Assembly (NCBI GenBank): GCA_040758355.1
Contig: JBFLWF010000004.1
Coordinates: forward strand, 61,174-125,173
Origin: Nitrospirota bacterium
Lineage (GTDB): Bacteria > Nitrospirota > Thermodesulfovibrionia > Thermodesulfovibrionales > Dissulfurispiraceae
Direction: 5' to 3'
Length of the DNA stretch: 64,000 nucleotides
Every line of letters begins with the position of its first letter. Within the stretch, counting starts at the first letter, position 1. Made by a program: the position numbers and the translations under genes. The notes under the pieces were generated by a model that was not told the DNA's origin, ran no database searches, and worked only from the letters and a program-made list of their open reading frames with translations. This document shows positions 396 to 41,665 of this stretch, one piece after another.

Positions 396-1430
396 ATGGA
401 AATGCGATTCTTTTTGAGTTTAGTTGTAGTTTTAATTGCAGTGGTCAATTCTGAAGGAAATTTCGGAAGGGGGACAAAGTCCCCCTTCCGTGCAGAGGCT
501 ATGTTCCTCTCCGAAAATCCTCCTGCCGGACATTCAGGCGGCCATAAAGAGCACAGGGGTGGAGAAAGAAGCGATAGGAAAAGCGGGCAAAGAGGCGGCG
601 AACATTCGGAGCACAGGGCTGCGCCCGTAAAAAAGTTTTATCTCAATATTCATGACCTTTCTGACAGCGCAAAGGCTTATGTCCTGCGGCCTGATGGCTC
701 AATAACAGAAGGCAGATTAAGCCATGACGAAGGCGCATGGAGCGTTACATTCGATACAAAACCGATGGACGGCTCGATGGATGGGGTTTTTAATGTCTAT
801 GTAGTGGACAAGCAGGTTTCCGACGGAACGCTCCTTATCAGGGTTGCAAAGATGAATGCAATAAACCATAGCTGCGGATGGGGACATAAGTACAAATTCG
901 ATAAGGAAAGGCAGAGGCCGAAACATCTTGATTCAATACCGCTTGAGATAGTAGGTCATGACCTGTGGAACAGCTACTTTCATACGCAGACAATGTCAGG
1001 CGATAAATTTGTTTTTTCTGTGTTGCATAACGGAAAGCCTGTCAGTGCCTCTGTTAAAGTGCGGACTCAGAGCGGATGGATGAAGATGTTCAAGACCGAT
1101 GACGACGGCAAGGGTTCATTCCAGCTTATAAGGGATTATTACCCTGAAAAGTGGAATGATTTCAAGGCAAGGAAGAGGAGCGGTTTCGTAATCACGGCAG
1201 AGTATGAGGCCGATGAAAAAGGCATGTATGAAGGCAAGAGCTATAACAGGATCAAGCTTGTAACGACCATTCCATGGAGATACCAGCCCCAGCGCAGTGA
1301 ATATACATCTTACGCATATGGTCTGGGAATAGCAGTTGCCTTTGCTATTGCCGGAGGTCTTGCTGTTTATATTCACCGTGAGAGGCGCAAGAGGCCTTAC
1401 AGAGAGGTAAGGTTTAATGAGAAGAATTAG
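396..1430 (+). CDS. Exported, C-terminally membrane-anchored protein with His-rich N-terminus (DUF4198-like, putative metal-binding)
   Basis: Signal peptide, His/Gly-rich stretch, HSCGWGH motif, VLHNGKPV...KTDDDGKGSF segment, C-terminal TM helix plus basic tail. Confidence 0.7.
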   Translation: MEMRFFLSLVVVLIAVVNSEGNFGRGTKSPFRAEAMFLSENPPAGHSGGHKEHRGGERSDRKSGQRGGEHSEHRAAPVKKFYLNIHDLSDSAKAYVLRPDGSITEGRLSHDEGAWSVTFDTKPMDGSMDGVFNVYVVDKQVSDGTLLIRVAKMNAINHSCGWGHKYKFDKERQRPKHLDSIPLEIVGHDLWNSYFHTQTMSGDKFVFSVLHNGKPVSASVKVRTQSGWMKMFKTDDDGKGSFQLIRDYYPEKWNDFKARKRSGFVITAEYEADEKGMYEGKSYNRIKLVTTIPWRYQPQRSEYTSYAYGLGIAVAFAIAGGLAVYIHRERRKRPYREVRFNEKN

Positions 1431-2409
1431 GGAGTTTATCTATAGCGCAGACATAAATCGCTTCAGGATTTACTTCCAAGTATTCGCTTTCGGACTGCTC
1501 ATATACGGAGGCTATCTGGCCATTGATATAAGCACAAACCTCCCGACCTTTGCCTGTCCTTTTGTAGGAAACAGCAGGGGAGGAACCTGCTATCTGTATC
1601 CGCTTCAACATCAGGTCAATATGCCTTTTGCACAGTTTATAGGCGGAAGGGGCATCGCCTTTTTGACAGGGCTTATAACGTTTGTGCTTCTGTTCATGCT
1701 TTTCAACAAGGCGTGGTGCGGGTTTGCATGTCCCCTCGGCACAATTCAGGACTGGATAACAAAGCTGCGGAGCAAGCTCGGCACAAGATACAGCACATAC
1801 CCTGAAGGCACATTTAACGGGCTGAAAAAAATAAAGTATATACTTCTTGCTCTACTCATTCTGTTGACGCTGGGCATGAGCAACGCTGTCCCGGGTATTG
1901 GGAAACTCTCCGAGGACTTCATGACTCCTTACTGTATGCTATGTCCAGGAAGGACAGTGCTTCCGATTTTCAATGGGGACATAAAACAACTCGTTGTGGA
2001 TTTCAGTTCAAAGACAAAGCTTACCCTCACAGCGCTCGGCATGGCCGTTACAGGGACTTTTTTTGTGGGGGCGTTCGTTAAAAAACGCTTTTTCTGTTTT
2101 TTCTGTCCAATGAGCGCACTGCATTACATATTTTCGAAGGCTGGACTTTTGAGACTGATTAAGGACGGCTCAAAGTGTACGAAATGCGGCAACTGCTACA
2201 GGGTCTGCGATGTGGGGATAAAAGAGATAGCGGATGACGTGGTCAGCAAAAACATAGTGAAGGATGACTGCATGATGTGTTTTAAATGCGTTGCAGCTTG
2301 CCCTGAGGAGAAGTGTCTTGATGTGAAATTTTTAGGTTTGCCTGTTTATCGCTCTACAGAGCAGGGCTTTTTCAAAAGAATGGAGGGAAAAGTTAAAAAT
2401 GGAAATTGA
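1417..2409 (+). CDS. Membrane 4Fe-4S-binding protein (NapH/MauN-like polyferredoxin)
   Basis: TM helices, WCGFACPLG and FCFFCPM motifs, two CxxCxxCxxxC motifs. Confidence 0.85.
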   Translation: MRRIREFIYSADINRFRIYFQVFAFGLLIYGGYLAIDISTNLPTFACPFVGNSRGGTCYLYPLQHQVNMPFAQFIGGRGIAFLTGLITFVLLFMLFNKAWCGFACPLGTIQDWITKLRSKLGTRYSTYPEGTFNGLKKIKYILLALLILLTLGMSNAVPGIGKLSEDFMTPYCMLCPGRTVLPIFNGDIKQLVVDFSSKTKLTLTALGMAVTGTFFVGAFVKKRFFCFFCPMSALHYIFSKAGLLRLIKDGSKCTKCGNCYRVCDVGIKEIADDVVSKNIVKDDCMMCFKCVAACPEEKCLDVKFLGLPVYRSTEQGFFKRMEGKVKNGN

Positions 2410-3715
2410 AAGACTCGAAAGAATAAAAAAGACAACTGCGGTTCATCTCGCAATGGAGGCAAAGGATGCCCTGAAAAAGATAACAGAGGATTTCCCGGAT
2501 AATCCTGATGCAATGGAATACTTTTATTCCCTGCTTCATAAGTTTTATACAGATGGCGAGCTTTTTAAAGAGGGGGTTCGTGGGGTAGACAAAGTCTCCA
2601 CCACGCTCATAGGAACGATGTGCATTCAGGTTCCTGAAGAGCTTATCTATGCAGCAGGAGCAAGACCGATAAGATTATGCAGCGGCGCTTACGCATATGA
2701 TCAGACAGGCGCTGAATTCATGCCTGCGAAGTCATGCTCTCTGGTTAAGGCAACACTGGGGATGCTGAATATCAAAAATATGCCTTTCAAGGATTCATTG
2801 AGCGCCATAATAGTCTCTACAACCTGCGACCAGAAGAAAAAGGCGGCGGATATGCTAAAAGAAATGGGCTATAAGACATATACGCTCGAAATGCCTTCGG
2901 TAAAAGATACCGAGGAGGCGCGCTTTTACTGGCAGAACTCGGTAAAGAATTTTGCATCTGCGATTGAGGATATATCCGGAAACAGGATTACAAAAAAAGG
3001 ATTGAACGAAGCAGTGATGAAGACTAACAGGGCAAGGGCTGAATTCAGGAGATTCAATAACTTCAGGAAGAGCGCACATCCGCTTATATACGGAAAAGAC
3101 TCATTTGTTGTAGCCAATGCCTACTTCTTTGACGGCATCGAACAATGGACAGAGGCGCTTGCAAAACTCAACGCCGAACTCGAAGATAGAGACAATAGAG
3201 GGGTATCGGTTGCTAATAGGCATGCGCCGAGGATTTTGTTTACCGGCTCTCCTGCGATATTTCCAAATCTCAAGCTTCCTCTGCTTATAGAGCAGTCGGG
3301 CGGGGTTATCGTTGCCGATGAGGTATGCTCTTCTTCAAGGCTTCTGTATGACTCTGTGAGCTTCGATGAAGGCAATCTCTATGACATGATCCCTGCCATC
3401 GCAGACAGATATTTAAAGCCGTGCACCTGCCCATGTTTTGCGGAAAATGAAGACAGGAAGAGGAAACTGCTCGAAATGGTAAGAGGCTTTAATGTTGACG
3501 GCGTTGTGTATCAGGCATTTTCAGGATGTCATCTATACGAGATGGAGCATAAGTCTGTAGGAAAATTGCTTGAAGCAGAAGGGGTTCCGATGCTCTATAT
3601 AGAGACCGATTACAGCCCTGAAGATACCGGACAGTTGTCCACGAGGATTGAGGCGTTCATGGAGTCTATTAAAAACAGGAAGAGAAGTAAATTGCAAGGA
3701 GGATGTGACAGGTGA
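2399..3715 (+). CDS. 2-hydroxyacyl-CoA dehydratase family Fe-S protein, probably double-cubane-cluster type reductase
   Basis: MCIQVPEELIYAAG, RLC, SCSLVK, TTCDQKKK, EVC, CTCPC, GCHLY and IETDYS...GQLSTRIEAF motifs; single subunit. Confidence 0.85.
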   Translation: MEIERLERIKKTTAVHLAMEAKDALKKITEDFPDNPDAMEYFYSLLHKFYTDGELFKEGVRGVDKVSTTLIGTMCIQVPEELIYAAGARPIRLCSGAYAYDQTGAEFMPAKSCSLVKATLGMLNIKNMPFKDSLSAIIVSTTCDQKKKAADMLKEMGYKTYTLEMPSVKDTEEARFYWQNSVKNFASAIEDISGNRITKKGLNEAVMKTNRARAEFRRFNNFRKSAHPLIYGKDSFVVANAYFFDGIEQWTEALAKLNAELEDRDNRGVSVANRHAPRILFTGSPAIFPNLKLPLLIEQSGGVIVADEVCSSSRLLYDSVSFDEGNLYDMIPAIADRYLKPCTCPCFAENEDRKRKLLEMVRGFNVDGVVYQAFSGCHLYEMEHKSVGKLLEAEGVPMLYIETDYSPEDTGQLSTRIEAFMESIKNRKRSKLQGGCDR

Positions 3716-4527
3716 AATATTTTGCCGGCATTGATATAGGCTCTACAGCAATAAAGATAGTCCTGATAGACGAATCAGGGGACATAGTTGCACACCAGAC
3801 TTCCCCTACAGGCAGCCATTTCCATAAGAACACGCTGGACAGTTTCCATATGCTGCTTGAAAGGACAGGCACAAAAAAAGAAGACGTAGCCTATATCACA
3901 TCCACCGGTTACGGCAGGAAGCTTTTTAAAGAGGCTGATGAGTCCATAAGTGAGATAACCGCAAATGCCGCAGGCGCCAGAATTATCGGAAAAGATTACG
4001 GAGCGGTGCGGACAATCATCAATATAGGAGGACAGGACTCAAAGGTGATACTCATCGATGATGCAGGCCATGTAAAAAACTTTACAATGAATGACAAGTG
4101 TGCCGCAGGCACAGGAAGATTCCTTGAAATGACTGCGAGGAATTTAGGTGTGGAGGTTGATGAACTGGGGACAATGCACCTGAACGCAAAAGATATTCCC
4201 TTAACCATCAACAGCACCTGCACTGTCTTTGCCGAATCAGAGATAATAAGCCTTTTGGCAAACGGACATGAAAGGGAGGAGATTATAGCAGGAGTTCACT
4301 ATTCCATTGCAAGGAGGATAGTGCGCCTTGCAAAGCGGATAGGCATTGAAGACATGGTCTTTTTTGACGGCGGCCCGGCTATGAACAGGGGGCTTGTTGC
4401 AGCCATGGAAGACGAGTTGATGAGAAGTATCATAGTGCCTGAGATACCCCAAATTACCACTGCACTCGGTGCAGCAGTCATTGCCAGAGAAGCTTTTCTT
4501 GCAGAAGGAGAGAAGGTTCATGCATGA
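3712..4527 (+). CDS. ATP-dependent activator/reductase of the CoA-dehydratase type (BadF/BadG/BcrA/BcrD ASKHA ATPase)
   Basis: GIDIGST, TGYGR, IGGQDSK, MNDKCAAGTGRFLE and STCTVFAESE motifs; GTG start overlaps upstream stop. Confidence 0.92.
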   Translation: MKYFAGIDIGSTAIKIVLIDESGDIVAHQTSPTGSHFHKNTLDSFHMLLERTGTKKEDVAYITSTGYGRKLFKEADESISEITANAAGARIIGKDYGAVRTIINIGGQDSKVILIDDAGHVKNFTMNDKCAAGTGRFLEMTARNLGVEVDELGTMHLNAKDIPLTINSTCTVFAESEIISLLANGHEREEIIAGVHYSIARRIVRLAKRIGIEDMVFFDGGPAMNRGLVAAMEDELMRSIIVPEIPQITTALGAAVIAREAFLAEGEKVHA

Positions 4528-28376: not shown

Positions 28377-28679
28377 ATGACACTTGGCATACTTGTTACT
28401 ACCGACAAATACAGGGATGATGTTGTGGGCATCACAGAGGCAGCAGTTGGCAGGGGACATCGGGTTGTTCTCTTTTTCATGGATGAAGGCTGCCGGTTGA
28501 TAACAGACAGCAGAATTGTTTCCCTCAAAGACAGAGACGGCGTTTCCATGAGTCTCTGTGACTTTAACCGGAAGAAGATGGGGATTTCTGATGAAGAAGT
28601 TCCAGAGGGGATTATCTGCGGAAGCCAGTATGACAATGCGGTTATGAACAGGGAATCGGATAAAGTGATAGTTCTTTAG
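28377..28679 (+). CDS. DsrE/TusD-like sulfur relay protein
   Basis: GHRVVLFFMDEG, conserved-position Cys in SLCD, GSQ...SDKVIVL terminus. Confidence 0.8.
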   Translation: MTLGILVTTDKYRDDVVGITEAAVGRGHRVVLFFMDEGCRLITDSRIVSLKDRDGVSMSLCDFNRKKMGISDEEVPEGIICGSQYDNAVMNRESDKVIVL

Positions 28680-28750
28680 CTGATAGCTGATAGCTGATAG
28701 CTCATAGCTGAAAATAAATAACTATGAGCTATGAGCCATGAGCCATGAGC
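28677..28750. repeat. Inverted heptamer arrays (TAGCTGA)n / (YATGAGC)n
   Basis: Visible tandem 7-mers; arms partly complementary (GCTCATAG / CTATGAGC). Confidence 0.85.
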
Positions 28751-29016
28751 AAAAGAAAATAGCGGTAATTGTGAGGGAAAGACAGTCCGAGGCTTTGCGC
28801 ATGGGCATAGGACTTTCAGTGCTAAATGATGTGGATATATACATATTTGACAGAAAACTTGAAGCATCCGATGATATTTCATTAAACCTCGAAATGATCA
28901 AAGAAATGAGATTGTGCCTCTATACAAATACTGCTTTAAATGAAGGTATAGAGTATATTCCAACAGAAGATATTGCGAAAAGACTTCTAAAATATGATAA
29001 TATTTTGCCGTATTAA
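28738..29016 (+). CDS. DsrF/TusC-like small protein
   Basis: KKIAVIV...SEALRMGIGL...YDNILPY, DsrEFH-fold pattern; operonic with the DsrE-like gene. Confidence 0.6.
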   Translation: MSHEQKKIAVIVRERQSEALRMGIGLSVLNDVDIYIFDRKLEASDDISLNLEMIKEMRLCLYTNTALNEGIEYIPTEDIAKRLLKYDNILPY

Positions 29017-29228: not shown

Positions 29229-30326
29229 ATGGAGGGGATACCACAGGCAAGCATTATGGTCTTGCTCAGCGGTGTGCTGGTAGGCGTTTTGCTCGGTTTT
29301 GTGCTTCAACGCGGCAGGTATTGAATGAACTCAGCGTTCAGAGACGTGATCTTTGTAAACGATATAACATTGCTGAGGGCATGGCTTCTGGCATTGGTAA
29401 TTTCTATTATCGGTGCTAACTTTATTGAGGACATTGGACTTATGGGTGCTGACGGCTTAAGGCGTCAGGCATTTGCCCCTGTTGCAGCCATTGTTGGCGG
29501 CTATATCTTCGGTCTCGGAATAGTGAGGGCAGGCGGATGCGGCAGCGGCGTTCTGTACAAACAGGGTGAAGGGCAATTTGCTGCATTTGTTGCTGCACTC
29601 GGTTTTGGTGCAGGGCTTATAGCGACAATGCATGGCCCGCTTAAGCCTGTAATGAAGTTTTTGAAAAGCTATAAGATGTCTGTAGGTACGGATGCGGATG
29701 GCGAACCAATAATGAGCCCTGCATTATGGGATATATTTGGAGGCGGAAATATCAAGTGGATAGTTATTGCTGTGATTGCAGCGATAATAATTCCCATTGT
29801 GCTTAAGGGCAGGCCGTTTGCAAAAGGACCCAAGAAGGGATGGTCATGGTCATTGGGTGGGTTTATACTCGGATTTGTCGTCATCTTTGCCTGGTGGACA
29901 TCTTACTATTGGGGTGGGCAGGCAAGGGGACTTTCATTCTCCGGCCCGACATCTGATTTCTTTTTATTTACTCTTATTGGAAACAGTCAGGCGCCCTTTG
30001 ACCCGATGTTCAATATCTTCGGCATAGGCATAGCTACATGGAGCGCACTGTATGTTATAGGTGTTCCGATAGGTGCATACATTAGCTCAAGAGGTCTCGG
30101 TGAATTTAAATTAACTGCTCCAAAGGACCCGAGCGAACTGGTGAGGGTATTTACTGGAGGTATTATCATGGGATTCGGCGGCGCAGTTGCGGGTGGCTGA
30201 ACTGTGGGTCATTCCTTGACAGGTATGTCAAGTCTGGCTTTACAGAGCATAGTCGCTACGGTGTTTATAATCCTCGGCAACTGGACAATGACTTACTTCA
30301 TGTTCATAAAGCCGATGAAGGATTAG
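29229..30326 (+). CDS. YeeE/YedE (TsuA-like) sulfur-compound transporter, predicted selenoprotein with two Sec (U32, U324), 365 aa
   Basis: GGAGG SD + ATG 29229. One frame through TGA 29322-29324 (LQRGRY-U-MNSAFRD) and TGA 30198-30200 (AVAGG-U-TVGHSLTG) to TAG 30324-30326. Both TGAs are at family Cys motifs and are followed by hairpins. Confidence 0.88.
29335..29361 (+). promoter_or_regulatory. Candidate bacterial SECIS for U32
   Basis: CGTT-CAGAGA-[CGTGA]-TCTTTG-TA-AACG; apical loop starts 21 nt after UGA and has G at position 2. Confidence 0.6.
30206..30240 (+). promoter_or_regulatory. Candidate bacterial SECIS for U324
   Basis: Perfect stem CTTGACA-[GGTA]-TGTCAAG (30215-30232) on a lower GGGTCA/TGGCTT stem; loop starts 22 nt after UGA. 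Confidence 0.8.
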
Positions 30327-30482: not shown

Positions 30483-30707
30483 ATGAAGAAGGTTTTAGCC
30501 CTGATCGTAGCACTGCTCTTCGTATTCGCTGTCTCAACAGTAGCTTTCGCTGCAGAGAAGGCAGACGCCCCTAAGGCTGAGAAGGCAGACAAGAAGGCAG
30601 ACAAGAAGGCAGACAAGAAGGATAAGAAGGACGAGAAGAAAGACGAGAAGAAGGAAGATAAGAAGGACGCAGCACCAAAGAAGAAGAAAGCAATCGAGGG
30701 CTGCTAA
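30483..30707 (+). CDS. Small secreted Lys/Asp/Glu-rich protein ending in IEGC
   Basis: AGGAGGTG SD, signal peptide (AFA-A), ADKK/DEKK repeats, single terminal Cys; own promoter and terminator. Confidence 0.85.
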   Translation: MKKVLALIVALLFVFAVSTVAFAAEKADAPKAEKADKKADKKADKKDKKDEKKDEKKEDKKDAAPKKKKAIEGC

Positions 30708-31716: not shown

Positions 31717-31941
31717 TTATTTCTGCAGTCTCGGTTTTGCCCCTAATTTATACAGGATGTTTGCCATGAGGCAAAAGCCTGTTAGGGCGAATATAATTAA
31801 GTTTACTCCAACAAGCCCTGTTAAAATCAACCAGTACGGGCTGTGGATAGCTGCCAATATAGCGCTGGATAGGGCAAATATGCCTCCTATGAGCCACGTC
31901 AGCCTCTCCAGATACCAGCTATCGGTTTTTGCGATATACAT
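31717..31941 (-). CDS. DUF2892 (YgaP-like) small membrane protein
   Basis: LERLTWLIGG...VGVNLIIFALTGFCLMANILYKLG; start moved to ATG 31941 (GGAGG SD). Confidence 0.85.
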   Translation of the reverse strand: MYIAKTDSWYLERLTWLIGGIFALSSAILAAIHSPYWLILTGLVGVNLIIFALTGFCLMANILYKLGAKPRLQK

Positions 31942-31960
31942 CTTATGCCTCCTGTTTTTG

Positions 31961-34900
31961 TTATTTAGGGATGAAGGACATTGATTTGCTTTTATATACA
32001 TAATAAAGCACAGGAACCATTGTCCTTGAAAGCAGTGTTGCTGCTACTTCTCCTGCCATCAGCGAAATCGCCATTCCCTGGAATATCGGGTCAAATAGTA
32101 TCACCGATGAGCCCACGACAACTGCAGCAGCAGTAAGTAGCATTGGCCTGAACCTTATTATTCCTGCCTGCACAACCGCCTCTTTGAGCGGCACTCCTTC
32201 CGAGAGCTTCAGCTCTATGAAGTCAACGAGTATGATCGAATTCCTTACAACTATTCCTGCTCCTGCTATGAACCCTATCATCGATGTAGCGGTGAAGAAT
32301 GCCCCCATGATGGCATGTCCCGGAAGTATTCCGACAAGCGAAAGAGGAATAGGGGCCATTATCACAAGGGGGATCATGAATGACTTAAACCATCCAACAA
32401 CCATTACATATATCAAGATCATAACCGCTGCGAATGCTATCCCTAAATCCCTGAATACCTCATATGTGATGTGCCATTCTCCGTCCCACTTCATGGAATA
32501 TTTATCCTCAAGCCATGGTTGTATTGCAGAATATTGTTTTAATCCATATCCTTCGGGAAGCTTTAGTTTTTTGATGGCATCCTTCATCTTCAATATGGCA
32601 TACACAGGGCTTTCTTCAGTCCCTGCAACTTCGCCTGTGACATAGACGACCCTCTTCAGGTTTTTTCTGTAGATTGTCTTATCCTCGATGCCTTCTCTGA
32701 CTTTTACAAGCTCGGCAACGGGAACCTGAATTCCTGATTGTGACAGGACCGTTATTTCCCTTAAATCATTTATGCTCGCCCTCTGGGAAATTGGAGTCCT
32801 CAGATGCAGTTCCACCGGCTCTTTATCCTTCTCGATGTGCGCAAGGCCTGCAGAAGCGCCGTTTAAGACCATATGGAGCGTCTGTGCCACTTTTTCCGTG
32901 TCTATTCCATGATATGCAGCCTTTTCTTTATCGACCTCGAATATGAGCTTCTTCTGGTCATCCTCCACATACCAGTCAACATCAACCACTCCTTTTGTGT
33001 CTTCGAAGACGTTTTTAATCTGTTTTGCAATATCAATCTGCCTGTTGAAATCAGGGCCATAAATTTCTGCAACGAGGGTGCTGAGGACAGGCGGGCCAGG
33101 AGGTATTTCTACAACCTTAATTTTTGCATTGTATTTATCACCTATTTTTTTAATCTCTGGCCTCAGCCTTTTTGCAATTTCATGGCTCTGCGCCTTCCTT
33201 TCATCTTTAGGAACAAAGTTCACCTGAATGTCTGCAACATTGCTCCCTGACCGCATAAAATAGTGCCTCACAAGGCCGTTGAAATTAAAAGGCGCTGCTG
33301 TGCCTGCATATACCTGATAGTTTGTGACCTCAGGCACTGTCTTTAGATATTCTCCTATCTCCCTCGATAATGCAGCACTCTTTTCGAGGGTTGTGCCTTC
33401 CGGCATATCGATGATCACCTGAAGCTCGCTCTTGTTGTCGAATGGAAGCATCTTTACAGTGACGAGTTTAAGGGGAACAAGCATGAATGCAGCTCCCAGT
33501 AAAAGCATGACAATGCCTAAAAATAGCGTTCTCTTTTTTCCGTTTTCAAGAAGTCCTCTGAGATTTCTTTCATAAGCTCTGTTAAGAGCAGCAATTATCT
33601 TGTTTTCTTTTTCTTTGCTGACTGCTGACTGCTGACTGCTGACTGCTGACTTGCGGAGCACTATATAGCTCAGCCACGGACTGATGATGAATGCAATGAG
33701 CAATGAAAGGAGCATTGCTGCCGATGCGCCAACCGGGATGGGGCGCATGTAAGGCCCCATCAGCCCTGAGACGAATGCCATTGGAAGGAGAGCTGCAATA
33801 ACCGTAAATGTGGCGAGTATCGTGGGATTGCCCACCTCATCCACGGCAGATACCGCTGTTTCGGTATCGACCTTTCCCATCTTGAAATGGCGGTGTATGT
33901 TTTCCACAACAACAATGGCATCGTCGACAAGGATACCGATAGAAAATATGAGTGCAAAGAGAGTGACCCTGTTTAAGGTATATCCGTACATGTAGTTCAC
34001 GAGTATTGTAAGTGCAAGTGTTACAGGCACTGCCACGCCTACAACTATTGATTCCCTCCAGCCCAGTGCAAGGGCTATGAGGATTGTTACGGAGATGGCG
34101 GCAATGAACATATGCTCGAGGAGTTCATCCGACTTTTCCTTTGCAGTGTCTCCATAGTTTCTCGTGGGTGTTATCTCGATGCCGGATGGTATGACATTGC
34201 CCTTGATTGCCTCTATCTTTTTTAATGCCCTTTCTGCAATGTGTGTGGCGTTTGTGCCTTTCTTTTTTGCTATGGCGATGGTTACTGCTTCATATGTGCC
34301 TGTCCCCGGGGGGTTCGCGGGGGAGATTCCATCTCCCCCGCGTTTAGCAGGGCCAAATCCCATGAATACATAGTTCGCAGGCTCTTCAGGGCCGTCGGTT
34401 ATTTTTGCCACTTCCCTCAGATATACAGGCTTTCCATTGAATACACTCACAACCACATTCCCAACTTCCTGTGCGTCCTTGAGAAATCCGCCTGTCTCAA
34501 CGAGTAATTCTTTATTTGATGAAGGGAATGCACCTGATGGCAGGACAAAGTTTGCCTTCTGGAGAATATCTGTTATCTGTAAAGGAGAGACATTGTATGC
34601 CCTCAGCCGTGAAGGCTCTAAATTTATCCTTACCTGTCTTTTCTGCCCTCCGATTATGTTGAATTCGGCTATATCACTGTCTTTTTTTAATTCATCAGCG
34701 ACCTCAACCGCGACCCTTCTTAATTCATAGCCTGTATACCTGTCGCTCCAGAGGGTGAATGAGAGAATCGGGACATCATCTATGGATTTCGGTTTTACAA
34801 GGGGCTGCGACACTCCATGCGGAATCTTATCGAGATTAGACCATAATTTGTTATAAAGATTGACAAGACTCTTCTCCATATCTTCGCCCACATAAAACCT

Positions 34901-35197
34901 CACAATGGCCATGCTCATGCCCGGCTTTGATATGGAATAGACATACTCAACGCCCTTTATCTCCCAGAGGAGTTTTTCCATGGGTTTTGTAACCCTTTCC
35001 TCAACCTCTTTTGCTGATGCCCCCGGATAGGAGACAAAGACATCTATCATTGGCACTACTATCTGAGGCTCTTCTTCCCTCGGAGTTACTATTACAGCGA
35101 ATACGCCGAGTATGAGTGAAGCTATGACTATGAGTGGCGTGAGCTTTGACTTTATAAATGCCTTTGCAATCTTGCCTGCTGTGCCTATTACTTCCAT
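31961..35197 (-). CDS. RND efflux permease (AcrB/AcrD/AcrF family)
   Basis: [41 protein letters not shown]. Confidence 0.95.
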
Positions 35198-36288
35198 TAT
35201 TTAATGATTCCTCCGTCTACAGCCTTTTCAATCCCATCGACGATTATTTTTTCTCCGCCGCTCAATCCTGATAAAACCTCTATCTGTTCGCCGTATTTCT
35301 TTCCTGCCTTTATCAGGCGGTATGTTATGACTCCTTGTTTATCCACAACATAAACCCCAACAAGCTGTCCCTTTTCGACAATTGCTTTTTGAGGAGCGAG
35401 TATCGACTCTTTTTTGCCTTCGGGGATGAGAACCTTTCCGTAAATTCCTGTTTTTAATGAAGGCATTTTCAGATCAACCTTAATGAGAAATGTCCTTGAC
35501 ATAGGGTCAACTGCAGGGATGATCTCTGATATCCTGCCCTTTGTTTCCTGCCCTATGGAGTCAATGATCACATCAACGGGCATTCCTATTTTAAGTTTTC
35601 CTGAAAGCCTCTCATCAACATTCGCCTCTATCCTGAAATACGAGTTGTCTTCCACGGTTAAAATCGGTATGCCGGGAACAGCCATGCTGCCCAGTTCTAT
35701 TTTTTTCTCTGTTACGACCCCTGATGTGGGTGCAGTTATTCTCGTAAATCCATGATGTACCTGTGCCTCTGCAAGCATTGCCCTTGACTTTTCGTATTCC
35801 ATATCAGCGACCTTTTTCTGGGTCTCTATCTGGTCTATCTCCTGCTGCGAAATGGCCTTTTCGTCATGAAGCTTTTTATATCTCTGGTACGTTATATCCG
35901 ATAAAGACTTATTCTGTTTTGCAGCCTCAACAGCCTTCTCTGCTGCCCTGACCCTTTGTGCGACATCCCTGTCATCTATGGTCATGAGCACCTGTCCGGC
36001 ATGAACTCTGTCGCCTTCTTTCACTTTTACCGATGTAACAGTTCCCATTACCCTGCTTGCTATGACGCTTATAGTCTTTGCCCTGACCGTGCCCGATGTT
36101 TCGTAGTATTCATCGACCTGCACAGGGTGTATTTCTGTCATGGTTACTCCTGTTACTGCCTGCCTCTTTACCTCTGCAGTGCCGGGTTTGACCTTGTCAT
36201 TGCAGCTATGCATCAAAAACAGAGCAGCTAAAAATATTATGGATAAAAGCCCTTTCATGGTAGATATCCTCCAGACTTTATTGTTCAA
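35197..36288 (-). CDS. RND periplasmic adaptor (MFP)
   Basis: Lipoprotein-like N-terminus, lipoyl half-motifs ([16 protein letters not shown]), VDPMSRTF. Confidence 0.95.
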
Positions 36289-37669
36289 TTTTTAAATCCC
36301 TTAGAATTGTCCCGCTTTCATAACTCAGATTGACCACTGCAATCCTGTATTCGTTCTCCTTTGCCACGAGGTTTGCCCTTGCGTGGTCAAGGCTTACCTG
36401 CGCATCCATTAAATCTACAATAGGCGATAATGCATTCTCGTATCTTATTTTCACAAGTCTTTTGCCCTCTTCTGCGGTCTTTAATGCAGCCTTTGACAAT
36501 TCAACATTTTTCCTTGCCTCTTCTGCACCGAGATACGCCTCATAAACCTTGAACGCAACTGCCTTTTTTAGTCCGTTGAGATATTCTTCCGTCTCTGCCG
36601 CTTTATATTTTGCCTTCGACCTTTCATATTCTCTCTTTGTGCCGTCAAACAATTCCCATCGAAGAAACGCCATGAGCTGCCAACTGTCGCCTTCCGAGCC
36701 AAACGGCCTTTTGTGGTCATTGAGCTGGTATGTACCGCCTATGCCTATGGATGGAAGATAGCCCGATTCTGCGATCTTTATGCTGTTTCTGGCATTCTGA
36801 TGCCGGAGTTCGAGGGACTTGATATCCTTTCGTGACAGGGATGCATTGGTGTAATAATCGATGCCCATTGCTGTGAATTCTGGGTTTTCATCGATTGAGT
36901 CAACAGATTCCATGATGCCTAAAAGCAGCCCCAGCGCCCTTTTTGCGACATTGAGATTTTTCTGCGCACTCACGAGCCTTTGCTCTGCATCTGTAACAGA
37001 TGTGGATGCCCTGAGGGTATCGGAATAAAGACCTAAGCCTGCCTTGTATCTCAGTTCGGCTATCCTCAGGTGCTCTTTTGCATCCTCCACAGCCTTTCCT
37101 GCAACCGTAACATGCTCCTTTGCCGTATGAACCATCAGGTATGTCTGAACAACCCTGAAGGTTATTTCTTCCTTCTTCCTTATAAATTCCTCGCCCTTTG
37201 CAGAGAATTCATTTTTCGATATGTCGAGTCCGATATTTGCCTTTCTTACAAATAAAGGCTGTTCAAATGAAAGGGATGTCTGGAAATCGTTTATCGGTTT
37301 TGGGTCATTTAACGATGTTATTGCAAAATCGGACTGTGCAAAGCGTTCCTGATTAAGTTTTGCCATAAAAGAATATGTCGGACTGTTTGTCCTCATGTAT
37401 CTTTCCTCGAATGTTATCTTCGGAAGCAGGAAGCTCCGCGCAACCCCTATATCTTCTTTCTGCGCAGAGAGGGAATTTTTAAAGGCCAGCACCTCATGGT
37501 TGTTCTCAAGTGCGGTTCTGATTGCATCCGGAAGGGAGACCTGTTTTTCAGAAGCAAAGACAACAGAAGGCGATAGGCAATAGGCGATAGGTAATAGAAA
37601 CAGACAAAAAACAAAAACCCTCTGCCAGTAACCTATAGCCCATTGCCTATAGCCTATTGCCTTAAACAT
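36278..37669 (-). CDS. TolC family outer-membrane protein
   Basis: Two OEP repeats; operonic with MFP and RND genes. Confidence 0.93.
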   Translation of the reverse strand: MFKAIGYRQWAIGYWQRVFVFCLFLLPIAYCLSPSVVFASEKQVSLPDAIRTALENNHEVLAFKNSLSAQKEDIGVARSFLLPKITFEERYMRTNSPTYSFMAKLNQERFAQSDFAITSLNDPKPINDFQTSLSFEQPLFVRKANIGLDISKNEFSAKGEEFIRKKEEITFRVVQTYLMVHTAKEHVTVAGKAVEDAKEHLRIAELRYKAGLGLYSDTLRASTSVTDAEQRLVSAQKNLNVAKRALGLLLGIMESVDSIDENPEFTAMGIDYYTNASLSRKDIKSLELRHQNARNSIKIAESGYLPSIGIGGTYQLNDHKRPFGSEGDSWQLMAFLRWELFDGTKREYERSKAKYKAAETEEYLNGLKKAVAFKVYEAYLGAEEARKNVELSKAALKTAEEGKRLVKIRYENALSPIVDLMDAQVSLDHARANLVAKENEYRIAVVNLSYESGTILRDLKIEQ

Positions 37670-38081
37670 AACGCCCTCCGCTTTTCTTTTTCATTTTTTG
37701 CTTCATGAATGCCTTGAATGTCTCCATATCGCATTTACCTGTCCTCTTCTGGAAATCTTCGCATTCCGTCAGAGACTTGATATCCTTCAGTAAAACCCTA
37801 TCATCTTTTAAAAGCTCTTTCAATACTGATAAAACGAGCATGTTTTCTTTGGTGAGATTTTTCTTGATTCTGTAAAACATGAGTTTTCCATCCCTTCTTC
37901 CTGCAAGAAATCCTGCCTTTGCAAGGAGGGAGAGGTTTCTCGATATGAGCGGCTGCGACATATTCAACACGCCCATTATCTGGCATACGCATAACTCCCT
38001 TTTTTCGAGGAGCATGAGTATCCTGAGCCTTGATTCATCGGATAGGAGCTTGAATATTTCCGTGATTTCTTTCATAAACAT
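37662..38081 (-). CDS. ArsR/SmtB family transcriptional regulator
   Basis: FKLLSDESRLRIL...ELCVCQI...SQPLISRNL; extra C-terminal Cys residues. Confidence 0.93.
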   Translation of the reverse strand: MFMKEITEIFKLLSDESRLRILMLLEKRELCVCQIMGVLNMSQPLISRNLSLLAKAGFLAGRRDGKLMFYRIKKNLTKENMLVLSVLKELLKDDRVLLKDIKSLTECEDFQKRTGKCDMETFKAFMKQKMKKKSGGRYV

Positions 38082-38214: not shown

Positions 38215-38243
38215 TTGACAATATCAGGCAACAGAAGTAAAAT
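38215..38243 (+). promoter_or_regulatory. sigma70 promoter of the first multiheme cytochrome
   Basis: TTGACA-N17-TAAAAT. Confidence 0.75.
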
Positions 38244-38445
38244 TCTTTAGGAAAATAATGACAGGCAAGGCTTTGTCTGTATTATTCGAGGGGGATAGCA
38301 AAAAATTAAATCGCCTTGGTTGGAAATTAAGTTCCCGATTAGATTCAATATTTGGGAACCGAAACAGGGGGAGGTGATGCATATCGATAAGCCGCACTGG
38401 AGGGGTTCAGTCAAGTAAGTCCAAGAATTTCAAAAAGGAGGGTTT

Positions 38446-39732
38446 ATGAGATTTCTTAAGTTGATTCTGGTTTTGCTTTTCATTGCTGTGCCGCTCGTAG
38501 CGTTTTCAGCAGAAAAGGCAAAGACCATCGACGAACTCGCAAAGATGTACGATGTTTCTTCATGCAAGCAGTGCCATCCAAAGGTTTTTGAAGAATGGGA
38601 GAAGTCCTACCATGCAATATCGCTTGTTGGCTCACCCCGTACCATGGCTACCATAGCAGGTACTGTAAAAGACGGCCTAATGAAGGAATATACAAAGGCC
38701 GGGATTAAGGACATAAAAGATATAAAAGTAGAGCATATGATGATCTGCGCTAAGTGTCATCTCCCGCAATTGAAAGACGCAACAGATGCAGTTGCTCAGG
38801 AAATTGCAAAGGCTGCAATCGACGGTGCTGCTGGCGATGAGGCTGCACAGGCAAAGCTCAAAAAGATTGGGATCAACTGCCTTATCTGCCATAACCAAAA
38901 GGCACTTATCCACAAGTGGACTGACGGCGAGCCAGAAGCCGGTGTTATTTACGGCAACAAAGAAGGCGCCCATGGCGATGCAAAGTTCAAGGCACTAAAA
39001 AAGAGCCCGATAATGAAGGAGTCAATCCTCTGCGGCCAGTGCCACGGTCTTGGCCCGAACTTTGATTTGACAGAACCAACGCAGTGCGCAACTCTTTATG
39101 GAAGCTATCTGCATTCATATGTGCCTTCGGGAGGCTCAAAGACATGTCAGGAATGTCATATGGACAAGGGGCACTATATGCCTGCTTACAGGGATCCTGA
39201 TCAGGCAAAGAAGGCTGTGAGCGTGGATGTAGATGCAATGGGTTATTACTTCCTGCCAAAGGCCGGGGATTCCATTCCAACTGCAAAGGTTACCGTAAAA
39301 ATGGTAAGCAAGGCAGGTCACAGAATCCCTGATGGCTGACCATCCCCTAACAGGCTGGTCCTGGATGTGACCGCTAAGACAAAGGATGGAAAAGAGATAT
39401 TCAATGCATCAAAGATTTATACACCGCAGTCTCCTGCAAAAGGCAGAGGAGACAAGGTGGTTTATGGTCCTCACAGGAAGTCAGGCATGCTTGCTGACAC
39501 AACCCTTCAGCCCGGCAAACCAGTAAAAGAGACCTTCGAGATTAAATTCCCTTACGAAGATGTAGAAAAAGAAGGCAAGAAAGTAAGGGATGTTAAGGCA
39601 AAGGAGATTGATGTAACAGTCAAGCTCTGGCATTTGCCTGCCGGCGGCAACCACAGGGATGATAAGGCTACCCCTGTGAATAAGGCCAAGTACCTATTCT
39701 TTGAAACAACAAAGACAGTTACAGTAAAATAA
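38446..39732 (+). CDS. extKL: Pentaheme c-type selenocytochrome, ExtKL-like, copy 1 (U298, 428 aa)
   Basis: Signal peptide and 5 CxxCH. TGA 39337-39339 in GHRIPDG-U-PSPNRLVLDV reads in frame into ORF 39367-39732. Hairpin CATC..CAGG-[CTGGT]-CCTG-GATG follows the TGA. Confidence 0.88.
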
Positions 39733-39745
39733 CTGTATCAATTAC

Positions 39746-39782
39746 ATATATCCGACCCCGTGATTCACGGGGTCGGATATAT
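39746..39782. terminator. Perfect 17-bp hairpin after cytochrome copy 1 (no U-tract; terminator or stabiliser)
   Basis: ATATATCCGACCCCGTG-ATT-CACGGGGTCGGATATAT. Confidence 0.6.
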
Positions 39783-39796
39783 ATCTTAAATCAGGA

Positions 39797-40111
39797 GTGT
39801 TGTTAATGTTTCGTTTGATCTGTTTGTTGATAGCTGTCTTAATTATTTTTGGCCCTGTTGCCGTGAACGCAGAAACAAAACAGGCAAGGGGGGTCATCAA
39901 TCTTACCGGAGGCGGTCTCTGTCAGAACAGCGCAATAACTATTATGGTAGAAGAAGTTTCCAAGCTTAAGCCAGGAGATATTCTTACCGTAGTAATAGAG
40001 ACAGAGAATAAGCACCTCATTAAAGCTGCCATAGCACTCGAAAAACTCCCGGTTGTTTATGAAGAAATAACCGATATGGATCTAACCCGTTTTATAATCA
40101 AGCTAAAATAA
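39797..40111 (+). CDS. Secreted TusA/SirA-like protein
   Basis: Signal peptide (AVNA-E), then INLTGGGLC...SKLKPGDILTVVIE...RFIIK, a TusA-fold pattern. Confidence 0.6.
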   Translation: MLLMFRLICLLIAVLIIFGPVAVNAETKQARGVINLTGGGLCQNSAITIMVEEVSKLKPGDILTVVIETENKHLIKAAIALEKLPVVYEEITDMDLTRFIIKLK

Positions 40112-40199
40112 ACCAGCCTATTTATAATCACATTCATTTTTTGCAATCCCCCTATTTCTTCAGGTTTTTATTAATAATCTAATATCCTAAACTTTTAAT

Positions 40200-40229
40200 T
40201 TGACAATATCTTATACCTACAAGTAAAAT
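40200..40229 (+). promoter_or_regulatory. sigma70 promoter of the second multiheme cytochrome
   Basis: TTGACA-N18-TAAAAT; shares TTGACAATATC...AAGTAAAAT with the 38215 promoter. Confidence 0.7.
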
Positions 40230-40334
40230 CTGCCCCAAAAGTTTTAATTTTAGAAGCATAGAGGGGTGATGTCTATAGGAAATATGTAATGTGGATAGCA
40301 CTTCATTCTAAAATTCATTAACAGGAGGGGATTT

Positions 40335-41627
40335 ATGCGATTATTGAGATTCATATCAGTCTTACTTTTTATTGTATTGCCGATGACGGTATTCGCAGCT
40401 CATCATGAGGGGATGAAGAAGGCAAAGACGATAGACGAACTCGCTGCGATGTATGATTCATCGAGCTGCAAGACCTGCCATGAGAAGGTTTATCAGGATT
40501 GGGAAAAATCCATCCATTCCCGCTCAATTTTCGGAACAGGAAGGACTGCTGCAACAATTAAGACCACAATCGAAGTTGGATTAAAAGGCTGGGATTATTC
40601 GGGAGTTAAAAAGCCGGAAGATGTGAAAGTGAAACACTTGATGATATGTGCAAAGTGTCACTTGCCTCAGCTTCAGGATGCTGAAGACAGCGTTGCTCAA
40701 GAAATCGTAAAGGCAGTATACGCATATTCTGCTGGAGATGAAAAGGCAGAATCAACACTCAAGAAGCTGAGCATCAACTGCATGGTATGCCATAACCGAA
40801 ATGCAATCATTCATAAATGGGTTGACGGATTCCCTGAAAAGGGCGTTGTTTACGGCTCAAAGGATGGCGCTCATGCAGACACTGCCAATCCAAAGATGAA
40901 GAAGAGCCCTATAATGGGCGAGTCCATTTTATGTGGACAGTGCCATGGCCTCGGTCCTAACTTCGAACTCGAAAATCCTTCACAGTGCGGAACGCTCTAT
41001 GGAAGCTATCTCTGGACATATCAGGCAGAAGGAGGCACAGAGAAGTGTCAGGACTGCCACATGAGAAAGAGCGGTTTGGGACACAATATGCAGAGCTACA
41101 GAGACCCTGGCATGGGCAAGGCTGCTGTGAAGTTCGATGTTGAAGCCTATGGACATTACTGGAGGGACGGTGCAAAGATAGTGCCACAGGCATTTGTTAA
41201 GGTTGAAATGACCAACAAGACCGGTCACACAATTCCGGACGGCTGACCAACCCCGAACAGGCTGGTACTGGAAGTGACCGCAAAGACACCTGATGGAAAA
41301 GAAGTTTTCAAGAAGTCAAAGATATATATGCCTGTACCTCAGCAGCTTGGCCGTGGCGACAGAATGGGCAGAGGCCCATACGAAAAGAGCGGTATGATCC
41401 GCGAGTCAGGCTTGCCTCCACATAAGACCGTAACAGAAAAGTTCGAAATCAACTTTCCGTTTGAGGATGTAAAAGAAGGCGACAAGAGTGTAAGGAAGAT
41501 TCTTGCCCACGATATGACCATTGATATAGAACTCTGGTATCTGCCGTTCGGCGTGAAGGACGAAGGAAACTCCTTCCTCTGGCAGAAGGTCACAAAAGGT
41601 ATAAGCATCAGTAAAACAGGGAAGTAA
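40335..41627 (+). CDS. extKL: Pentaheme c-type selenocytochrome, ExtKL-like, copy 2 (U304, 430 aa)
   Basis: Signal peptide and 5 CxxCH. TGA 41244-41246 in GHTIPDG-U-PTPNRLVLEV reads in frame into ORF 41274-41627, at the same position as in the paralogue. Confidence 0.88.
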
Positions 41628-41633
41628 GAATTC

Positions 41634-41665
41634 ATGCGGGATAGCCTTCGCTATCCCGCATTTTT
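41634..41665 (+). terminator. Terminator hairpin overlapping the rsmA stop
   Basis: ATGCGGGATAGC-CTTC-GCTATCCCGCAT followed by TTTT. Confidence 0.8.

Follow-up and report, generated by a model that had tools for sequence, protein, structure and literature searches.

The closest described relative of the genes considered here is MccSep of Geobacter sulfurreducens (= ExtKL, GSU2937-2936; family model NF040886; PDB 9WT8, 9WT9, and 9WTA-C), a periplasmic homotetramer with five hemes and one selenocysteine (Sec) that is required for sulfur respiration (Mihara et al. 2026, PMC13510729). Polysulfide is the better of its two substrates and selenite the poorer, whereas thiosulfate, tetrathionate, and sulfite are not reduced; the enzyme uses heme 2, ligated by H122 and C239, together with U325, R83, and K372 (PMC13510729). 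The same paper already places the family in the Nitrospirota (Thermodesulfovibrionia), and for Desulfuromonas acetoxidans it gives the names of two copies (PMC13510729). In the Geobacter ext cluster, ExtKL is encoded beside ExtH, a rhodanese, and ExtJ, a 104-amino-acid protein of unknown role (PMC5877670). The present analysis concerns a locus in a 64,000-nucleotide stretch of DNA from a Nitrospirota bacterium, here called the window (assembly GCA_040758355.1, contig JBFLWF010000004.1, positions 61,174 to 125,173), in which two MccSep/ExtKL genes, each crossed by an in-frame TGA, lie on either side of a small gene for a predicted exported protein of the TusA fold:

38446 to 39732, forward strand: MccSep/ExtKL copy 1, 428 amino acids, one internal TGA, predicted Sec298.
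39337 to 39375, forward strand: predicted Sec codon of copy 1 (39337-39339) and SECIS-like hairpin (39353-39375, loop UGGAU).
39806 to 40111, forward strand: small gene, 101 amino acids, signal-peptide-like N-terminus, predicted TusA/SirA fold, single mature Cys39 (codon 39920-39922).
40335 to 41627, forward strand: MccSep/ExtKL copy 2, 430 amino acids, one internal TGA, predicted Sec304, Geobacter-like subtype.
41244 to 41282, forward strand: predicted Sec codon of copy 2 (41244-41246) and weaker SECIS-like hairpin.

The two copies share with Geobacter MccSep the five CxxCH motifs, the heme-ligating Cys, a predicted Sec in GHxxPDGU, the R83 and K372 equivalents, an export signal, and a hairpin resembling the Sec insertion sequence (SECIS). 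The locus differs from its Geobacter counterpart in holding two subtypes in tandem beside rsmA, with a small TusA-fold gene instead of an ext-type cluster; no extH/I/M/N/O/P/Q/S-type cluster was found around the copies and no electron-donor genes like Geobacter extMNOPQS flank the locus. A small or sulfur-transfer protein is encoded beside ExtKL in both organisms, but the middle open reading frame (ORF) of the window (39806-40111) has no match to the ExtJ model (NF040942), and a weak ExtJ match lies elsewhere, at 30483-30707.

The initial annotation had described two diverged paralogues, each with a signal peptide, five CxxCH motifs, an extra Cys (QCxTLYGSY), and GHxIPDG-TGA-PxPNRLVL, and all of these elements were confirmed in both frames, where the TGA is codon 298 of copy 1 and codon 304 of copy 2. 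The description of the genes as a tandem pair holds in that both lie on the same strand in one locus, but not in that they are adjacent, as the small gene separates them. The copies are 56.6% identical at the amino acid level (408 columns). Searched against the ExtKL family model as that annotation had proposed, the read-through proteins score 534.9 bits (copy 1) and 591.7 bits (copy 2), with a curated cut-off of 250 bits, and MccSep from the PDB (9WT8/9WT9) aligns across the TGA with both (453 bits, E 1e-134 and 626 bits, E 2e-187). The residues R83, H122, C239, U325, and K372 of MccSep correspond to R65, H105, C214, U298, and K345 in copy 1 and to R70, H109, C218, U304, and K351 in copy 2, and the conserved distal histidines are present in both (11 conserved His columns). 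The conserved residues suggest that heme 2 would be ligated in both copies in the manner of H122/C239. The copies are therefore members of an already characterised family, whose structure, mechanism, and genetics are in print.

An open frame behind a TGA is not rare in this genome, where 31 of the 543 TGA-ended ORFs of at least 200 amino acids continue in frame for at least 125 codons; an open extension alone thus proves little, and the case for read-through rests on homology and an RNA signal. The motif GGT..TG...GT.AC follows the TGA only in copies 1 and 2 among the 543, which shows only that it is not common since the pattern was derived from the two copies themselves. In 35 TGA-type homologues, the third positions of codons +6, +7, +8, +10, and +11 behind the TGA are 91-100% invariant, compared with a median of 43% and a maximum of 80% at 94 other fourfold-degenerate columns, and the hairpin motif is lost in the two Cys-form homologues. 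Invariant silent positions in TGA forms and loss of the motif in Cys forms reflect selection on the RNA, as expected of a SECIS. These results bear out the earlier observation of conserved nucleotides and a hairpin clearer in copy 1, with folding energies of -8.4 kcal/mol for copy 1 and -4.8 kcal/mol for copy 2.

The Sec column tells the same story across the family. In 37 distinct homologues (39 extracted rows minus two truncated duplicates), the codon is TGA in 35 and TGC in two, the latter being the Cys-containing orthologues that the initial annotation had suggested looking for. Among 47 matches over the NF040886 cut-off in 61 genomes, 38 carry one TGA, two carry a TGA and a TAG, and seven are stop-free; two of the stop-free rows were examined and have Cys at the Sec column. 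None of the 47 has a lone TAA or TAG there, although consistent splitting of homologues by such stops had been named as grounds for rejecting read-through. The same genome encodes tRNA-Sec, selA, selB, and a selD with its own TGA, and mass spectrometry identified Sec at the same column of the Geobacter protein (PMC13510729). Decoding of the UGA as Sec through the downstream hairpin is thus supported for both copies on comparative grounds, and the earlier reading of a Sec protein of the ExtKL type linked to polysulfide has been upheld by the family and structure matches and the complete Sec machinery. Both copies are very probably single Sec-containing pentaheme MccSep/ExtKL cytochromes, with the periplasmic reduction of polysulfide to sulfide as their likely function. 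The presence of dsrAB in the host and of a Sec-type YeeE in the window agrees with this reading.

Some observations weigh against this assignment. Taken singly, neither hairpin is better than shuffled sequences (z -0.88 for copy 1, +0.25 for copy 2), that of copy 2 is weak on its own, and in short folding windows that include the UGA a rival hairpin wins over the SECIS-like stem, so the comparative silent-site test carries the hairpin case. Copy 1 is also further from the characterised enzyme than copy 2 (453 vs 626 bits). Fixed changes beside the catalytic residues, among them P64 for G69, R344 for E350, and S300 for T306, are shared by all 11 members of the copy 1 clade.

The small gene likely starts at ATG 39806, behind AGGAG, and not at GTG 39797. 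TusA and YeeD, whose fold its product is predicted to share, are cytoplasmic proteins. PMC12142623 also describes TusA as cytoplasmic. In the small family, by contrast, 19 of 19 members tested begin with a hydrophobic segment accompanied by K/R and have no further segment of that kind. An AlphaFold model of the window protein predicts the order beta-alpha-beta-alpha-beta-beta with a mean predicted local distance difference test (pLDDT) score of 79, and about 87-93 over the mature core. The best fold matches, all obtained with VIA-align, include YeeD (Z 8.3, root-mean-square deviation 2.8, 74 aligned), a SirA-like protein (Z 8.1, 2.2, 70), and E. coli TusA (Z 8.0, 2.8, 74). On the predicted model, a SirA-like fold with a Cys before helix 1 was found at Z about 8, tied with Trm14. 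When the small family is used as a profile, canonical TusAs are the next matches after the family members, and the Cys (Sec) column is invariant in the family, being followed by Pro (CP or UP) in some members. Resemblance to TusA, SirA, and YeeD (TsuB) (PF01206; PDB 3LVJ, 3HZ7, and 8J4C) therefore lies in the predicted fold, the size of the mature domain, and the position of the single Cys, whereas the N-terminal export signal, the absence of CPxP, the lack of Pfam detection, and the alternation of Cys with Sec set the small protein apart. It is like a TusA-fold protein yet fails formal TusA membership.

Formal searches were otherwise unproductive: there is no Pfam or NCBIfam family for the protein, the ESM Atlas gave no usable match, and a PDB sequence search with the small-family profile returned nothing relevant. 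Three distant members match Pfam TusA below its cut-off (17-20 bits, E 6e-4 to 5e-3), and the best NCBIfam TusA match, in one of 13 members, has E 0.011. Relatives themselves are few, numbering 10 proteins by phmmer and 15 representatives among 1.84 billion; the family occurs in 13 of 301 genomes of the class, and a looser cut-off gives 15 of 401 genomes of the phylum, the weakest of which are canonical TusAs or noise. Distant exported TusA-like proteins with NTxGAC (L048, L049, and L097, from genomes G150, G018, and G134) are encoded between a Tat-type exported DsrE-like gene and the gene of a large membrane protein, in that order, possibly as a periplasmic DsrE/TusA relay.

The genomic position of the small gene points to one subtype of MccSep. 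Ten of the 12 strong genome matches lie directly behind MccSep on the same strand, one is at a contig end, and one is elsewhere; all 12 genomes also encode MccSep. The small gene is directly behind MccSep at eight of nine metagenome loci, which include repeats of the same organisms, while the ninth begins at the small gene and is followed by a copy-2 type. The MccSep upstream always belongs to copy-1-like groups. The small gene is present at 10 of 16 copy-1-like loci, a share inflated by the four of the ten that were found via the small gene, and downstream of none of 13 copy-2-type loci; related genomes in these counts are not independent.

Twenty distinct close members reveal an alternation at the Cys39 column, where seven (L039, L046, L070, L085, L086, L089, and L095) have TGA and fall in two separate parts of the small-family tree. 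Behind the TGA of L039 is a hairpin with a stem at 17-23/28-34 from the codon and a four-base loop with G second. This stem forms 6-7 of seven pairs in six scored TGA forms, and in L095 by eye, compared with 3-5 of seven in 13 Cys forms, including that of the window; five of the seven TGA members were retrieved after the L039 structure had been noticed. In five aligned rows, 94% of cells are paired in the hairpin register vs 40-66% in slid registers. The same five rows show covariation not above shuffles (162/500) and paired cells at 56/500, and the register beats all slid registers. Among the hosts, G025 and G269 have selA, and the others encode an MccSep of the TGA type, either next to the small gene or at another place in their genomes. 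The TGA members thus combine an in-frame TGA at a conserved Cys with a Sec-decoding host, as is asked of bacterial selenoproteins, and judging by their sequences they are in all likelihood real selenoproteins.

The 119-family table of a 2026 selenoprotein catalogue (PMC13188914) has no TusA/SirA row, the main text of BSepDB does not list TusA/SirA, and no description of a TusA/SirA-like selenoprotein or of a periplasmic form was found in the literature searched, with subscription papers outside the search. Several small-family representatives are N-terminally truncated in sequence collections; gene callers appear to cut the Sec forms, so the family is easy to miss in catalogues. The small gene is therefore a candidate for a new selenoprotein family.

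The proposed mechanism proceeds from decoding to relay. The UGA of each copy would be decoded as Sec via the downstream hairpin, and export, heme attachment, and tetramer formation would follow by analogy with MccSep, as would attack of Sec on polysulfide and reduction through heme 2. Two old subtypes placed side by side with separate promoter-like sites would likely be tuned to conditions and not to different chemistry. The small protein would take up sulfur as a persulfide, or as a selenosulfide in Sec forms, and pass it to the copy-1-type enzyme. Its export, its persulfidation at C39, and its discharge by copy 1 are suggested by fold, Cys position, export signal, and linkage; this is the weakest step, which we put forward with more doubt than confidence. 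The broader proposal, that exported TusA-fold Cys/Sec carriers form an uncatalogued selenoprotein family and a dedicated periplasmic shuttle of one MccSep subtype, the cassette acting as a selenium-based sulfur relay, is more tentative still.

Several observations count against the relay. Neither the window protein nor nine close members match Pfam TusA (PF01206; threshold 28.6 bits), and LCQN stands in the window protein in place of CPxP. In the fold search Trm14 scores equally well (Z 8.1), and a Z near 8 can reflect a common arrangement; Cys39 aligns with the CP Cys of the TusAs of the same genome only weakly (hhalign E 0.019, probability 2.4%). A close member is present in only 12 of 172 MccSep-bearing genomes of the class, five of 16 copy-1-like loci have no small gene close by, and the members in G176 and G439 are away from MccSep, so the small protein is not an obligatory subunit. 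The Geobacter enzyme, moreover, reduces free polysulfide in vitro without a carrier (PMC13510729).

An alternative role for the small protein is in sulfur uptake, with periplasmic sulfane sulfur passing through a Sec-type YeeE to cytoplasmic TusA/DsrE/Dsr chemistry, as in sulfur disproportionation; the small gene would then lie beside MccSep since both respond to sulfur. Periplasmic sulfurtransferases feeding YeeE have been proposed (PMC12142623). YeeD, which partners YeeE, gives the best fold match, and a Sec-type YeeE with two DsrE-like genes lies 8 kb upstream in the window and, in L057, at a distance of about 2 kb from the MccSep locus. The distant members behind Tat-type exported DsrE-like genes, one of them in a genome without MccSep, fit such a role, as does a host with dsrAB and a weak dsrD match. 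YeeD, however, works on the cytoplasmic side, and the close members are right behind MccSep and not behind YeeE. An uptake role is unlikely, though it retains some weight.

A second alternative concerns the cytochromes, with copy 2 as the polysulfide reductase and copy 1 preferring selenite or another chain length or running oxidatively. The copies fall in different subclades, which a quick tree supports with Shimodaira-Hasegawa-like approximate likelihood ratio test (SH-aLRT) values of 99 and 100 (a more careful search was unfinished), and copy 2 belongs to the Geobacter-like group. They share just 42 of 95 fourfold third positions, and a recent tandem duplication is rejected on these two results; the pair is therefore a juxtaposition of old paralogues. 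A division of substrates is favoured by the two supported subclades, by the fixed differences beside the R83, U325, and K372 equivalents, including a Glu-to-Arg swap, by the reduction of selenite as well by MccSep (PMC13510729), and by the co-occurrence of both subtypes in G000, G006, G011, and L086. The catalytic residues, however, are all identical in both copies, and in many genomes this site beside rsmA is occupied by a single subtype, which suggests that the subtypes can replace each other. A sequence judged by eye to be copy-1-like is placed in clade 1 with the Geobacter enzyme in Data S1 of PMC13510729. Different substrates for the two copies are about as unlikely as an uptake role for the small protein. 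Other Sec-type MccSep subtypes (L030, L031, L033, L035, L052, and L053) have no R83 equivalent, with Gln for K372 in two, and from their sequences would be more plausible than copy 1 or copy 2 as enzymes with another substrate.

The third alternative, a mixed tetramer of both copies with the small protein as a structural or maturation subunit, has to be weighed against how the genes are arranged. The initial annotation had given each copy its own promoter:

38215 to 38243, forward strand: sigma-70-like promoter of copy 1, TTGACA-17-TAAAAT, 11/12, a consensus match only.
40200 to 40229, forward strand: sigma-70-like promoter of copy 2, TTGACA-18-TAAAAT, 11/12, a consensus match only.

These are the two best of seven sigma-70-like sites and can be aligned with each other, but the count of sites is not enriched over shuffles (7 vs 7.2), so separate promoters stand as consensus matches before each copy and not as a statistical excess. 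Adjacent genes and the recurrence of the cassette agree with a mixed tetramer: the full window order, with TGA in all three genes, occurs in L086/L087, the three-gene cassette recurs in L084, and in G006 a copy-1-type end is followed by a copy-2 type beside rsmA with no small gene between. The separate promoter-like sites, the single copy in most genomes, G002 of the same genus, which has copy 1 and the small gene at the rsmA site without copy 2, and the solved enzyme, a homotetramer without an extra chain (PMC13510729), make a mixed assembly improbable. True stops, and hence split genes or pseudogenes, are scarcely credible despite the run-ons behind 31 of 543 TGA-ended ORFs and hairpins that are not individually significant, given Sec by mass spectrometry in Geobacter (PMC13510729) and Cys in natural homologues at this column, no lone TAA or TAG in 47 matches, the silent-site constraint, and a downstream half without a signal peptide.

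Pairs of MccSep genes are not confined to the window. MccSep exceeds the cut-off in 172 of 301 genomes of the class, and two or more matches occur in 47 of 177 rows with a match, by a count made by eye of matches and not of copy numbers; genomes with more than one copy are common. MccSep genes are found repeatedly at the site beside rsmA, where the pairs of G273 and G023 include other subtypes. In G273 (L108:3592-6790), the tandem beside rsmA consists of two other subtypes, separated by a small exported gene of a different kind. Only the last 62 codons of copy 2 remain in L089/L090, immediately after a stretch that contains TTGACA, through either a deletion or an assembly artefact, and the complete genome G003 of the same genus has no MccSep match over the cut-off. 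Given this varied copy content across relatives, tandem pairs are recurrent and either copy is dispensable. Those relatives of the locus that carry a name belong to Nitrospirota/Thermodesulfovibrionales. Two contigs from RNA libraries of related strains span just 38259-38563 and were not counted as evidence. The words 'paralog' and 'tandem' do not occur in the main text of PMC13510729, whose supplement may list tandem pairs uncommented, and passages of PMC13490349 and PMC12142623 do not mention ExtKL/MccSep.

Further elements surround the three genes:

37662 to 38081, reverse strand: ArsR/SmtB regulator, divergent from copy 1, with the same divergent layout in L055, L057, L086, and L090.
39746 to 39782, no strand assigned: perfect inverted repeat of 18 bp separating copy 1 from the small gene, with similar GC-rich hairpins at the same spot in relatives (by eye).
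41634 to 41661, no strand assigned: 12-bp perfect inverted repeat followed by a T run, behind copy 2.

The repeat at 39746 would, from its sequence, be a terminator or an mRNA-stability element, and that at 41634 is likely a terminator common to copy 2 and the convergent rsmA; neither hairpin is among the calls of an intrinsic-terminator scan. The ArsR/SmtB protein is possibly a regulator of copy 1. It belongs to an operon divergent from copy 1 (31717-38081, reverse strand) of ArsR, TolC, membrane fusion protein, resistance-nodulation-division (RND) transporter, and YgaP-like genes, which also adjoins copy-1-type MccSep in L054 and L066. Further upstream, a YeeE/YedE sulfur transporter gene (29325-30326, forward strand) has an in-frame TGA at codon 292 (GGU-TVGH), reads through to 333 amino acids, has a strong hairpin behind the TGA (-11.8 kcal/mol), and belongs to a known selenoprotein family; two DsrE-like genes (28377-28679 and 28738-29016) precede it. 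Behind it, 30483-30707 (forward strand) encodes a 74-amino-acid exported low-complexity Lys/Asp/Ala protein ending in KKAIEGC, whose ExtJ match (E 1.8e-4) is below the cut-off; it is kept behind YeeE in L067 and could be another C-terminal-Cys sulfur carrier. In G000, C9 carries a tandem of exported multi-rhodanese genes, both interrupted after YCxGxT by an in-frame TGA, then an exported protein ending in KAEGC (L106:6623-9533), and C27 carries an exported octaheme cytochrome, followed by an exported protein ending in KKAAGC and a TusA (L107:6349-8857). At 1417-4527 (forward strand), genes labelled by eye as a 4Fe-4S membrane protein, a 2-hydroxyacyl-CoA dehydratase-like subunit, and an activase-like ATPase lie behind the end of a TonB receptor.

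The Sec-type pentaheme cytochrome itself is known and solved, and a tandem of two subtypes is a modest variant; the locus adds two natural MccSep subtypes in one cell, which allow a side-by-side comparison of substrate and regulation. The small gene is a candidate partner for the open question of the route by which polysulfide sulfur reaches MccSep in the periplasm. If the reading is true, exported proteins of the TusA fold that alternate between Cys and Sec would make up a prokaryotic selenoprotein family that is new, and the carrier would supply the periplasmic sulfur-transfer component left open by the MccSep paper (PMC13510729).

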